The translations under genes were made by a program, and so were the position numbers. The notes below the pieces were generated by a model. That model ran no database searches. It was not told where the DNA came from and saw only the letters and a program-made list of their open reading frames with translations. Below, piece by piece: positions 13,617-47,087 of a DNA stretch of 64,000 bases. Source of the DNA: an uncultured delta proteobacterium (GTDB lineage Bacteria; Desulfobacterota; Binatia; Binatales; Binataceae). Location of the stretch: NCBI GenBank assembly GCA_963765675.1, contig CAVXXK010000014.1, positions 96,001 through 160,000 of the forward strand, read 5' to 3'. The stretch's first letter is position 1; every line of letters begins with the position of its first letter.

Positions 13617-13632
13617 TGGCACATCGATTGCT
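13617..13632 (+). promoter_or_regulatory. Sigma54 -24/-12 promoter
   Basis: TGGCAC-ATCGA-TTGCT, exact consensus, about 50 bp before ATG 13681. Confidence 0.7.
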
Positions 13633-44409: not shown

Positions 44410-45762
44410 ATGGGAACGCTGGTCGATATCAAGCTTCCGGACATCGGCGATTTTACCGATGTCGACGTGATCGAGGTGATGGTCAAGCCAGGCGACCGGG
44501 TCCACGCCGAAGATTCCCTCATCACGATCGAATCGGACAAGGCCACGATGGAGGTGCCGTCGCCGCAAGCGGGCGTGGTCAAGGAGATCAAGGTAAAGCT
44601 CGGCGACAAGGTTTCCGAAGGGTCGCCGATCGTGGTGCTCGAAACCGAAGCGCCACCCGCTGACACGGCAGCGCCGCCTGCGCCGAAACCAACTGAGACT
44701 TCTGCGGAGCCGCGCAAAGAGCCCGCGCGCAAACGAGAGAAACCTCCTGCGGCGGAAGCTCCTAAGCCTGCTGCCGCTGCGCCTCCTGAAGCGGTCGAAA
44801 AGGCGTCCGCGGAGAAAGCCGCAGCGCCTCCCGAGCCCACGGAAGCAGCCGAGCATCCAGGCACCAAGCCGCATGCGAGTCCGTCGGTGCGCAAGTTCGC
44901 GCGCCAGCTCGGCGCCGATCTGTCGCTCGTCACCGGCTCGGGGATAAAGGGGCGCATCTTCCGCACCGACGTCGAGAAATTCGTGAAATCCGCGCTGACC
45001 CGCGCGGCGGGAGGCCGAGGCGGCACCGCGCTCGATCTGCTCCCGTGGCCCAAGCTCGACTTCACGCGCTACGGCGCGACCGAGACGCGCCCGCTCTCGC
45101 GCATCCGCCGGGCCGCGAAGGCCAACCTCGCGCGCAACTGGGTGATGATCCCGCACGTCACCCAGTTCGACGAGGCCGACGTAACCGAGCTCGAAGCGCT
45201 GCGCCGCGAGATCAACGAAACTCACGCCAAGGACGGAGTGCGCGTGACGATCCTCGCTTTCATCATCAAGGCGATGGTCGCGGCGCTGACCGAGTTTCCG
45301 GAGTTCAACTCCTCGCTCGACGGCGACAATCTGATACTCAAGAAATATTTCAATATCGCGTTCGCCGCCGACACTCCCGAGGGTCTGGTTGTTCCCGTCC
45401 TGCGCGACGCGGATAAAAAGGGCGTAGTGCAAATCGCCCGCGAAACCGCGGAGCTCGCCGCCGCCGCGCGCGCAGGAAAGCTCAGGCCGATGGACATACA
45501 GGGCGGATGCATCACGATATCGAGCCTCGGCGGGATCGGCGGGACCGCGTTCACGCCGATCATCAACGCGCCCGAAGTCGCGATCCTCGGCGTGTCGAAG
45601 CAGGTGATGAAGCCCGTCCATCGCGACGGCGAATTTGTCGCGCGCCTGATGCTGCCGCTGTCGCTGTCCTACGACCATCGCGTAATCGACGGCGCGATGG
45701 CGGCGCGGTTCATCACGTATCTCGGCTCGGTGCTCGCCGACATGCGCCGCGCGCTGCTGTAA
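44410..45762 (+). CDS. aceF: Dihydrolipoyllysine acetyltransferase E2 (single lipoyl domain)
   Basis: ESDKATMEVPS, Ala/Pro linker, HASPSVRK.AR, FTPIINAPEVAILG, SYDHRVIDGA. Confidence 0.96.
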   Translation: MGTLVDIKLPDIGDFTDVDVIEVMVKPGDRVHAEDSLITIESDKATMEVPSPQAGVVKEIKVKLGDKVSEGSPIVVLETEAPPADTAAPPAPKPTETSAEPRKEPARKREKPPAAEAPKPAAAAPPEAVEKASAEKAAAPPEPTEAAEHPGTKPHASPSVRKFARQLGADLSLVTGSGIKGRIFRTDVEKFVKSALTRAAGGRGGTALDLLPWPKLDFTRYGATETRPLSRIRRAAKANLARNWVMIPHVTQFDEADVTELEALRREINETHAKDGVRVTILAFIIKAMVAALTEFPEFNSSLDGDNLILKKYFNIAFAADTPEGLVVPVLRDADKKGVVQIARETAELAAAARAGKLRPMDIQGGCITISSLGGIGGTAFTPIINAPEVAILGVSKQVMKPVHRDGEFVARLMLPLSLSYDHRVIDGAMAARFITYLGSVLADMRRALL

Positions 45763-45791
45763 CTGGGATCGGGCGCGCAGAAATTGCGGAT

Positions 45792-45905
45792 AAAAAAGGG
45801 CCGGGTTACCGTTGGGGACCGTGGGTGGGGAGCCTACGGCAGTAACCCGGCCGTGCTTGGGGACAGGCGCTGTTGGTTCTCGGGGGAGGAGATTTGCAGC
45901 GCTGC
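45792..45905 (-). ncRNA. Candidate small RNA with C-rich loops and intrinsic terminator
   Basis: Sigma54 motif upstream; stems GCGCTG/CAGCGC and TCTC/GAGA with a CTCCCCC loop; 11-bp terminal stem GGCCGGGTTAC/GTAACCCGGCC followed by T6; four TCCCC motifs. Confidence 0.65.
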
Positions 45906-45915
45906 GATAGTGTAA

Positions 45916-45931
45916 AGCAAGACCAGTGCCG
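45916..45931 (-). promoter_or_regulatory. Sigma54 -24/-12 promoter of the candidate sRNA
   Basis: Minus strand CGGCAC-TGGTC-TTGCT; predicted +1 at 45905. Confidence 0.65.
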
Positions 45932-45974
45932 CGAATAAAAAGTAACGAAATCAAGGATGGTGGCCGAAAAAACT

Positions 45975-45998
45975 CTTCGCGAATTGCGATTCGCGAAG
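45975..45998. promoter_or_regulatory. Palindrome, possible enhancer-binding-protein site
   Basis: CTTCGCGAAT-TGCG-ATTCGCGAAG, 70-93 bp upstream of the predicted sRNA start. Confidence 0.4.
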
Positions 45999-46230
45999 CT
46001 GCCCATCAGGCGATCACCAACCTTTCCGCCTGATTTCACAGGGTTTTTGCACGATGCGATTGATGCAGTCGATCGGTCCAAAGATTCGCTTTTCGCGCAG
46101 CCGTCTGGCTGCTCAAGAGCAGCGCGATCGCTGCGGGATCACGCGATTCGGAAATTAGAAAAAAGGTACCGCCTCCGATACCCCCCTCGACCAGCGAGAG
46201 GCCACTTCCGCACGACAGCGCGGTGCACGT

Positions 46231-46366
46231 GGCGTGGACTCGGAGCATGGCCGTCCCGGGATTCCTCGCCCAAGGCTCGGAATGACGATCGATGGTTCGT
46301 CTGCGGCTACGATAATGATGCGCCTGGCCCGCATTCGTCATTCCGAGCGCTGCGCGAGGAATCCCG
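46231..46366. repeat. REP-like element pair (GGGATTCCTCG..GCTCGGAATGAC and inverted copy)
   Basis: 46257-46286 and inverted 46337-46366; 46231-46299 matches 54447-54515 at 62/69 nt. Confidence 0.8.
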
Positions 46367-46539
46367 ACACGTTCATGCACTGACCTTCGCGTGGCGGGCA
46401 TCCACGCAAATAAAAACTGCGCATCGTGCCGCACAGGTTGTGCGAACGATCCGATGAAAGGCCGCCGGCCGATCTGGACCGCTATCATTTCGCGCTGGCC
46501 GTTGAGAGGTTTCGATCCGTGTGTTAATTCCTACCTTCA

Positions 46540-46613
46540 CGGGGCGTGGCGCAGCCTGGTAGCGCACCTGCCTTGGGAGCAGGGGGTCGGCCGTTCAAAT
46601 CGGCTCGCCCCGA
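46540..46613 (+). tRNA. tRNA-Pro(TGG), CCA not encoded
   Basis: Acceptor CGGGGCG/CGCCCCG, anticodon arm CCTGC-CTTGGGA-GCAGG, GTTCAAAT. Confidence 0.95.
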
Positions 46614-46617
46614 TTTA

Positions 46618-46694
46618 GCGCCAGTAGCTCAGGTGGAAAGAGCAGCGGCCTTCTAAGCCGCGGGTCAGGGGTTCGAATCCCTTCTGGCGCGCCA
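46618..46694 (+). tRNA. tRNA-Arg(TCT)
   Basis: GCGCCAG/CTGGCGC-GCCA, GCGGC-CTTCTAA-GCCGC, GTTCGAATC. Confidence 0.96.
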
Positions 46695-46747
46695 TGGAAA
46701 TTTGCGGGCTTCGAGCCCGGACCGTGTTTCGATCGGTTCAAAGCAGT

Positions 46748-46824
46748 GGTGGGTGTAGCTCAGTTGGTAGAGCGCTGGATTGTGGCTCCAGTGGTCGAGG
46801 GTTCAAATCCCTTCACTCACCCCA
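46748..46824 (+). tRNA. tRNA-His(GTG) with encoded G-1
   Basis: G-GTGGGTG/CACTCAC-C-CCA, CTGGA-TTGTGGC-TCCAG. Confidence 0.96.
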
Positions 46825-46854
46825 CATATCCTGCTACGAAAGCATCTCGTCGGT

Positions 46855-46930
<76 letters not shown>

Positions 46931-47087
46931 GTTTTTCGGATCTTTTACCCATCTCCGCTTGCGAGGTTTGGTCCATCCGCGCGCGCTTGCATCTGCGGGC
47001 GGGCTACGCGACGCTTGGCGCGATTTGCCGTCATGCATACCGCCGATACCGACATTACTGCGCAATCCGCTGACGCCGCTGCGATCG

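Follow-up and report, generated by a model that had tools for sequence, protein, structure and literature searches.

A predicted small RNA gene with a sigma-54 type promoter and conserved C-rich unpaired motifs in the Binataceae

The 64,000-nt stretch of DNA analysed here (the window) comes from an uncultured delta proteobacterium of the family Binataceae (Desulfobacterota; Binatia; Binatales; GenBank assembly GCA_963765675.1, contig CAVXXK010000014.1, positions 96,001 to 160,000 of the forward strand). It contains an aceF-like gene for an E2 acyltransferase (44410..45762, plus strand; Pfam families 2-oxoacid_dh, Biotin_lipoyl and E3_binding), which is preceded by an E1 gene, and a tRNA Pro-Arg-His-Lys cluster (46540..46930, plus strand; identified with ARAGORN). 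Between the two, an earlier note made from the letters alone had placed a candidate sigma-54-dependent small RNA (sRNA) on the minus strand, and this placement was confirmed. The predicted RNA gene of about 114 nt (45792..45905, minus strand) runs from the predicted +1 to the end of a U tract; the aceF-like gene is its convergent neighbour and lies outside the element, and the tRNA cluster is divergent from it. The promoter, the start point, the hairpins, the linker, the U6 tract and an upstream palindrome that the note had described were all found on the minus strand at the positions given.

Reading along this strand, the element is headed by a -24/-12 promoter of the sigma-54 type, CGGCAC-N5-TTGCT (45931-45916), with GG at 45930-29 and GC at 45918-17; taking the C of GC as position -12, the +1 is predicted at 45905. 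The RNA would begin with hairpin 1 (45867..45902), in which a 6-bp stem GCGCUG/CAGCGC (45902-45897 paired with 45872-45867) closes a 24-nt loop holding CUCCUCCCCCGAGAA, and the first C-rich motif, CCUCCCCCGAGAA, occupies 45877..45889 of this loop. The single-stranded linker CUGUCCCCAAGCAC (45853..45866) forms the second motif. Hairpin 2, the terminator hairpin (45799..45852), is made up of an outer stem of 11-12 bp, an internal loop and an inner stem. Eleven base pairs of the outer stem are formed by GGCCGGGUUAC and GUAACCCGGCC (45852-45842 with 45809-45799), the apical loop CUCCCCA (45832-45826), in an apical part that carries CUCCCCACCC, is the third motif, and a 3' bulge CCCCAAC (45817-45811), which carries GUCCCCAAC, is the fourth. 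Six U residues follow (45797-45792), and this succession of a GC-rich outer stem and U6 has the form of an intrinsic terminator. The predicted fold has a free energy of -45.5 kcal/mol (z = -5.3), and none of 200 shuffles folded as well. UCCCC occurs four times in the 114 nt, where 20,000 mononucleotide shuffles of the RNA average 0.60 occurrences (P(>=4) = 0.00085), and 114-nt segments with at least four UCCCC exist at only three loci on both strands of the 4.5-Mb genome, one of them a simple C/T tract. A pure C/T tract of low complexity and about 70 nt (ctccccctcccccctctccccccc...) was seen outside the window at G000:C1:90780-90850, in an intergenic, AT-rich setting.

The RNA is conserved among relatives. 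BLAST against 40 relatives detected it in all 10 genomes of the same genus, in 6 of 14 from other genera of the family and in none of 16 from other families of the class, and an exact-pattern scan of 185,579 species genomes returned 37 matches, all in metagenome-assembled genomes, whose titles name Candidatus Binataceae, Candidatus Binatia, 'delta proteobacterium', Deltaproteobacteria and, once each, Thermodesulfobacteriota and Proteobacteria. A covariance model (R1) built from 17 sequences finds it in 111 of 151 family genomes, a tally that is a lower bound as diverged copies are missed, in 78 of the 95 high-quality genomes and in 20 of the 30 genera. One genome negative by this first model, G014, has a diverged syntenic copy preceded by a GGCAC-N5-TTGC promoter of its own and by the two upstream sites described below; a broader model recovered a copy in G015 among 20 'negatives' and missed the one in G014, and no copy was seen in the syntenic 1.5 kb of four other 'negative' genera of the family. 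Outside the family, 150 other genomes of the phylum gave one marginal match (26.8 bits, E = 1e-3), and the surroundings of the tRNA cluster in 5 genomes from other families yielded nothing credible. Judging from these searches, the RNA is essentially confined to the Binataceae. The BLAST, covariance-model and dnaA tallies include seven genomes flagged unpublished (G010, G043, G067, G083, G095, G108 and G157), and no conclusion rests solely on them.

With the covariance model the RNA is single copy per genome, and in the window's own genome the sole significant match scores 137.4 bits, the next best having E = 0.16. The exception is G053, with three tandem matches within 550 bp (L094:3001-3553), of which the outer two have sigma-54 promoters and the middle one has none. 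The hairpin-1 stem of this middle copy (29 bits) is wholly different, yet its loop and linker are still C/U-rich.

For comparison of loci we used a set of 69 distinct homologous sequences. The divergent tRNA cluster lies upstream in 55 of the 69 loci and downstream in one; the DNA examined at the remaining 13 holds no tRNA cluster, and several of these end at contig ends. It is this cluster and not aceF that is the conserved neighbour, as aceF is found downstream in 10 of the 69 loci only, all within the window's genus. Otherwise the downstream genes are mostly convergent and belong to at least 14 unrelated families (34 open reading frames (ORFs) scanned, 22 of which gave a family), namely glycogen phosphorylase, GFO/IDH/MocA oxidoreductase, CoA-transferase, ABC-2 permease, SDR, enoyl-CoA hydratase, hybrid histidine kinase, LigB dioxygenase, DSBA, IMPDH, Hsp70-like, nucleotidyl transferase, aldo-keto reductase, GST and PQQ dehydrogenase. 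These neighbourhoods bear on whether the element acts in cis, either as the intrinsic terminator of the convergent aceF or as a leader or attenuator of a downstream gene. Hairpin 2 stands 30 nt beyond the aceF stop in the window, and in some genera a same-strand gene (GFO/IDH/MocA oxidoreductase, CoA-transferase, IMPDH or DSBA) follows within 90-220 nt, as such a role would have it. The U tract, however, follows the hairpin on the minus strand only, an A run preceding it on the aceF strand, and conservation holds the promoter, hairpin 1 and the linker together as a unit. A cis-acting role thus seems very unlikely and is largely refuted by synteny, and with it falls the reservation of the earlier note that the hairpin might serve only to terminate aceF. 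Because the RNA, its promoter and its hairpin persist beside unrelated, mostly convergent genes, we read the region as an independent gene for a small RNA; it has its own promoter, its own terminator and variable neighbours, and it lacks an ORF.

The secondary structure was examined on a MAFFT alignment of 68 sequences that excludes the middle copy of G053 (29 bits). Standard pairs fill 94.1% of the cells; sliding the partners by 1-3 columns lowers this share to 33-47%. Of the 29 pairs, 15 show double-sided changes (69 cells); no shuffle of 500 reached any of five measures. The hairpin-1 stem is nearly invariant, with 98.8% of cells paired over the 68 sequences and double changes in 3 of its 6 pairs. 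The outer helix of hairpin 2 is paired in 96.7% (5 of 12 pairs doubly changed) and its inner helix in 93.0% (6 of 7 pairs). The covariation shows an architecture of a short-stemmed, large-loop hairpin, a single-stranded linker, a long terminal hairpin and a U tract. The hairpin with a CUCCCCC loop drawn in the earlier note keeps its 6-bp outer stem, while the inner 4-bp helix that would define the smaller loop is weak (78.3% paired), and loop 1 is better seen as one large loop. G-U pairs are frequent (e.g., UG:30 at one pair and GU:16 at another), and since they would be A-C mismatches on the opposite strand, they fix the strand as minus, the strand on which both the promoter and the U tract lie. 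At least four U residues in the 8 nt after the stem are present in 58 of the 68 homologues, the other 10 having C-rich tails.

The same alignment speaks on coding capacity. Two frames overlap the element (45806-46081, minus strand, 91 aa; 45784-45915, plus strand, 43 aa) and could be taken for a small-protein gene. The 91-aa frame, however, would begin upstream of the promoter, AUG, GUG and UUG are absent throughout the 114-nt RNA, the loops have 1-nt insertions and deletions, homologues differ by 1- and 2-nt ones, and conservation tracks base pairs, not codons. We therefore give a protein product practically no credence, in line with the earlier judgement that the segment holds no credible ORF.

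Conservation is not limited to the helices. CCCC is kept in loop 1 in 66 of 68 sequences, in the linker in 64 and in the apical loop in all 68, and its flanks are conserved as well, with CCCCGAG in loop 1 in 58 of 68 and UGUCCCCAAGC exact in the linker in 55 of 68. The four UCCCC motifs reported earlier are all present in the window; three of them are conserved across the family, and the fourth, in the 3' bulge, retains CCCC in 28 of 68 only. The mean predicted unpaired probability is 0.60 for motif 1, 0.73 for the linker and 0.86 for the apical loop, against about 0 for the stems. This pattern of conservation points to the single-stranded C tracts as the functional parts. The RNA had been proposed to act against the Shine-Dalgarno (SD) sequence, and the terminal sequence of the 16S rRNA is ...GGAUCACCUCCUUUCA; only 33 of 68 sequences have the anti-SD core CCUCC in loop 1, and the invariant parts are C4 runs with specific flanks. 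Targeting of G tracts, as described for the sRNA sX13, would fit these sequences better than a plain anti-SD function.

The promoter has been kept together with the RNA. GG and TTGC are invariant in 17 of 17 sequences, and GG[CT][AG][CT]N5TTGC occurs in 68 of the 69 homologues, where it ends 10-13 nt (67 cases) or 15 nt (one case) before the model start; the only homologue without it is the middle copy of G053. In an alignment of 66 upstream regions GG and TTGC reach near-maximal information and the spacer carries none, the sequence between the promoter and +3 varies freely, and conservation restarts at the hairpin-1 stem. GG at -24 and GC at -12, exactly 10 bp apart within TGGCAC-N5-TTGCW, are the marks of the sigma-54 promoter class, in which rpoN-dependent transcription begins some 11-13 nt past the GC. 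The genome contains rpoN (one Sigma54_DBD match, 214 bits) and 18 strong Sigma54_activat matches; no Sigma54_activat gene is located within the window. The motif in 68 of 69 homologues, its uninformative spacer and the presence of rpoN uphold the earlier assignment of the promoter to sigma-54. The pattern GG[CT]A[CT]N5TTGC[AT] has 48 matches in the genome, where base composition alone would predict 55; the match alone is not significant in one genome, and its weight comes from conservation. As many as 40 of the 48 matches fall outside the roughly called coding sequences (CDS), which cover 76% of the genome, and most of them are therefore probably real promoters.

Two further matches lie in the window on the plus strand at 13618 and 15677 (G000:C14:109618 and 111677), and they are probably what the earlier note called a sigma-54 regulon at 5-20 kb. 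Since they lack the upstream dyad of the RNA, we see no sign of the suggested link between that regulon and the RNA. A similar dyad accompanies just one other sigma-54-like promoter of the genome, GGCATAAGAATTGCT, which lies outside the window at G000:C15:32600-32760 (L130:2120-2260) and has a perfect CCTTCGC-N5-GCGAAGG palindrome upstream. The ORF that comes next (144 aa) has no Pfam family, and a gene for a response-regulator-type activator is located 8 kb off on the other strand.

Farther upstream of the RNA gene two DNA sites recur. The proximal one, TCGCAATTCGCGAAG (45989-45975, minus strand, starting at -84), is a TCGCA-N4-GCGAA-like sequence. Most homologues have it at -82 to -84, one group has it at -94 to -96, and a further group at about -116. 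In some genera it is thus displaced by about 11-12 or about 33 bp, i.e., by whole helical turns, as would be expected of activator sites that must face the promoter. The distal site, TCGCATCGTGCAAAA (46045..46059, minus strand, starting at -154), belongs to a block TcGCA...TGCgAAA (TCGCAnnnTGCgAAA) present at about -150 to -157 in most of the 66 aligned upstream regions. We infer that these two TCGC-N5-GCGAA-like dyads are putative binding sites of an enhancer-binding protein (EBP). After the distal block the upstream alignment has the consensus at.tc....a.tta, an IHF-like A/T-rich stretch, which corresponds to 46021..46039 (minus strand), just downstream of the distal site, and is a poor match in the window. 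Several homologues match the IHF consensus WATCAANNNNTTR, e.g., with AATCAATCGCTTAG, or with AATCAACGCGTTA in G014. The proximal site is also the right half of a palindrome at 45998-45975 (minus strand), 70-93 nt upstream of +1, that a simple scan flagged as terminator-like. Its 10-bp arms are present as noted before; the hairpin is specific to the genus, and what is conserved is the right half as a DNA site at a fixed position. A terminator of an upstream minus-strand gene was considered for this palindrome and set aside in favour of the DNA site, given the noncoding 550 bp beyond it and the lack of conservation of the hairpin outside the genus.

These 550 bp between the RNA promoter and tRNA-Pro have no coding composition (GC1-3 = 0.62/0.57/0.61) and no Pfam match, and they are conserved at their two ends only. 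No sigma-70-like promoter was found in 45000-47000. An internal inverted repeat lies in the spacer at 46245-46378, between the upstream sites and tRNA-Pro, with opposite-strand BLAST matches in two relatives, and a terminator-like hairpin occurs at 46436-46417 on the minus strand.

Public sequence data offer a view on expression. Nine public runs contain part of the stretch (shares 0.10-0.30), seven of them recorded as RNA, and four soil metatranscriptome runs were compared as assembled contigs, which cannot define transcript ends and may include DNA. Contigs at least 88% alike cover 45782-45895 (X1, X3), 45795-45895 (X2) and 45841-45904 (X6); they derive from relatives, and their loose 5'-side ends of 30 letters read like the promoters of relatives. 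Bins without cover upstream of 45916 carry no evidential weight. Three contigs extend across the predicted start to about 53, 61 and 237 letters upstream of it, two end at or near the terminator (X2 record 8, X6 record 20), two run 316 and 508 letters past it, and one (X3 record 12) starts inside the RNA, 4 letters past 45895. The bridging contigs, together with those that stop at the terminator, are what would be seen if a longer transcript started upstream and the RNA were its 3' end, left by processing or termination, GGCAC-N5-TTGC having some other role. We consider this quite unlikely. The stretch from the promoter to +3 is not conserved and conservation resumes exactly at the hairpin-1 stem, the upstream 550 bp are noncoding and lie in a region where no sigma-70-like promoter was found, and invariant GG and TTGC around an uninformative spacer are the signature of sigma-54 binding; RNA libraries may moreover contain DNA, and the contig of X3 record 12 starts inside the RNA. 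Carried-over DNA, read-through and a start farther upstream could each explain the contigs that bridge or overrun the ends. That RNA libraries contain the sequence is compatible with expression of the RNA, whose discrete 114-nt species is a prediction from sequence.

Comparison with known systems was made with Rfam and the literature. No Rfam family matched the element in the window at E<=10 or at 10 diverse homologue loci at E<=1, the sX13, Qrr, GlmY, Pxr and other sigma-54-dependent sRNA families included. An isrB-like match (45968-46061; 17.2 bits, where the gathering score is 35; E = 7.1) was dismissed as chance. The sRNA sX13 of Xanthomonas has C-rich loops, targets mRNAs with G-rich (4G) motifs close to their start sites and can do without Hfq (PMC3771888). 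The Binataceae RNA is of similar size and likewise has several unpaired C4 motifs, neither Hfq nor CsrA was found in the 95.6%-complete genome, and GGGG is enriched at gene starts. The differences are that sX13 has three stem-loops with apical C-rich loops, against two hairpins and one motif in the linker here, that there is no homology in sequence or structure, that phylum and locus are others, and that the abstract on sX13 reports no sigma-54 dependence (PMC3771888). By analogy, the RNA would work most like sX13.

Other sRNAs share single traits. RsaE/RoxS of the Firmicutes reportedly pairs through unpaired C-rich motifs at or near the SD sequence of many mRNAs. The betaproteobacterial S17 ('toxic sRNA', RF02278) does so through C-/pyrimidine-rich unpaired motifs, and differs in its sigma-A promoter, RNase E processing and Hfq binding (PMC11722255). 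Neither of the two shows homology to the Binataceae RNA. NcS25 of Burkholderia was rejected as a relative, as it is 84 nt long, lies beside a porin gene and has no upstream sigma-54 motif (PMC10117139). The alpha-r14/cuckoo family (NfeR1, CcsR1-4) resembles our RNA in its diverging stems, ultraconserved unpaired C-rich motifs and silencing of many targets at the ribosome-binding site (RBS); the NfeR1 promoter carries no sigma-54 signature (PMC10746234). That family is alphaproteobacterial, and its defining CCUCCUCCC is found there in every unpaired region, whereas here only loop 1 carries CUCCUCCCCC, and this in part of the family (CCUCC in 33 of 68), the other motifs being GUCCCCAAG and YCCCCA. 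Tandem multi-copy arrangements, which occur in the alpha-r14 family, may be compared with the three tandem copies in G053.

Sigma-54-dependent sRNAs include Qrr1-5, GlmY, Pxr, NrsZ and CrcZ. With these and the noncoding RNAs of Desulfovibrio vulgaris, the Binataceae RNA would share a stand-alone gene, a -24/-12 promoter, upstream activator sites and gating by an EBP. Qrr and GlmY/GlmZ work with Hfq or RapZ, whereas no Hfq was found in the window's genome. Four sigma-54-dependent noncoding RNAs are included in the sigma-54 regulome of D. vulgaris, three of them listed beside their activator gene (PMC4641369), in contrast to the RNA described here, which has none within 1.5-3 kb. Because it has no Rfam match, no CCUCCUCCC signature and no adjoining activator gene, the RNA as judged from sequence belongs to none of the compared families.

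Candidate targets were sought by scanning 3670 roughly called start regions against internal-CDS controls. Loop 1 forms duplexes of <= -16 kcal/mol with 522 start regions against 262 controls, and at -18 kcal/mol with 248 against 115. GGGG is enriched 1.5-fold and GGGGAGG 4-fold at start regions. The top-ranked start regions belong to dnaA (rank 2), dnaE (rank 5), a glpX-type FBPase, a universal stress protein, an MFS transporter and two histidine kinases, and dnaA, with a loop-1 site and a linker site, is the best two-site candidate. The start regions of rpoN and the 18 activator genes yielded nothing significant over 57 tests; the best activator start region (C6:46099-47292, minus strand, 398 aa, gcggggacaccgcgggggguacauacgAUG) is at the 0.6th percentile for loop 2 and the 4.7th for the linker, not significant over 57. 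A separate observation concerns an extragenic palindrome, GCTGCACCCCCTCCTTTAATCCTCCCCCGT-N6-8-ACGGGGGAGGAATCAG, of which about 10 copies occur outside the window on G000 contigs C1, C3 and C4 (e.g., C1:1871142-1871167, C1:2164463-2164488 and C3:201389-201414), several directly beside gene ends. The G-rich arm of this repeat, CGGGGGAGGA, is perfectly complementary to loop 1 over 10 nt, and the C-rich arm is similar to loop 1 itself.

The C4 motifs might alternatively bind a protein that recognises C-rich single strands, e.g., of the KH type, and the RNA would then sequester or guide that protein, as CsrB/RsmZ titrate CsrA through GGA motifs. Each RNA has three to four similar motifs, none of them in a paired context, which would suit such a role, as would flanks that are invariant beyond the needs of a G-tract seed (the exact UGUCCCCAAGC in 55 of 68); searches found no specific mRNA target, and with neither Hfq nor CsrA found another RNA-binding protein may fill the role. 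We regard it as unlikely, given that no candidate protein is at hand and none is linked to the locus, that known bacterial C-rich unpaired motifs act by base pairing (PMC3771888; PMC10746234), and that loop 1 shows a two-fold excess of strong pairing with start regions.

In weighing these results we separate the gene from its function. That the locus holds a conserved structured RNA gene with a sigma-54 promoter, belonging to a Binataceae family of such genes, can be held with high confidence. The full statement, a sigma-54-driven sRNA gene of about 114 nt whose product pairs with G-rich ribosome-binding regions of mRNAs, is the reading we favour, with moderate confidence. RNA polymerase with sigma-54 would start transcription at the -24/-12 promoter, the two upstream dyads, at about 84 and 154 bp, would be recognised by an enhancer-binding activator, probably helped by a bend in the DNA at the IHF-like site, and the RNA would be produced only while the signal of the activator is on. 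The three unpaired C4 motifs (loop 1 CCCCCGAGAA, linker UGUCCCCAAGC and apical YCCCCA) would then pair with G-rich stretches at or near the RBSs of several mRNAs and block translation or alter mRNA stability without Hfq, as sX13 or RsaE/RoxS do. This pairing mechanism rests on analogy and on the anatomy of the RNA.

Several results weigh against the full statement. No activator gene lies within 1.5-3 kb at any homologue locus, and a search of the genome for dyad plus promoter returned one other locus (C15:32738) against a chance expectation of 1.3, the 50 matches of a relaxed search being noise. The terminator is not universal, as 10 of 68 homologues are without the U tract, and the anti-SD case is weak with the CCUCC core in 33 of 68 only. 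The linker has no excess of strong duplexes (201 against 196 in controls), and complements of the conserved flanks (CTCGGGG, CTTGGGG and TTGGGGAC) are not enriched at start regions. As a conserved target dnaA was rejected, for its linker site is kept by only two of the three genomes from the genus and by none of the 27 others examined, and among the 5' regions of 30 genomes its G-rich SD is also present in 7 without a detected RNA. Duplex scan, exact complements of at least 10 nt, k-mer enrichment and the dnaA comparison together gave no specific conserved target. To these are added the contigs that overrun the terminator and, mildly, those that bridge the start.

A bolder version would make this single-copy RNA, in a phylum without detectable Hfq or CsrA, a global, EBP-gated hub that brakes translation through three C4 seeds on G-tract RBSs, including those of dnaA and dnaE, and so ties the sensing of nutrients or stress directly to the initiation of replication; in a variant, the RNA would titrate a C-rich-RNA-binding protein. 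We consider it unlikely.

The earlier expectation of an unannotated RNA conserved in promoter and loops is borne out by a stand-alone gene in which promoter, structure and C-rich motifs are kept, and we consider it a genuine new RNA family of a known kind, i.e., a C-rich-seed sRNA with a sigma-54 type promoter. It is mechanistically unsurprising and opens no new kind of mechanism. In a literature search at the level of titles and listings, we found no paper pairing Binatia, Binatota or Binataceae with small or noncoding RNA. The covariance-supported family is suitable for Rfam submission, and the locus is a testable regulatory module with a defined sigma-54 promoter, two candidate activator sites and three defined seeds, for which a heterologous host suffices. 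For the Binataceae (Binatia), which are abundant uncultured bacteria of soil and sediment, the RNA would represent another case of C-rich, chaperone-independent riboregulation that seemingly arose independently.

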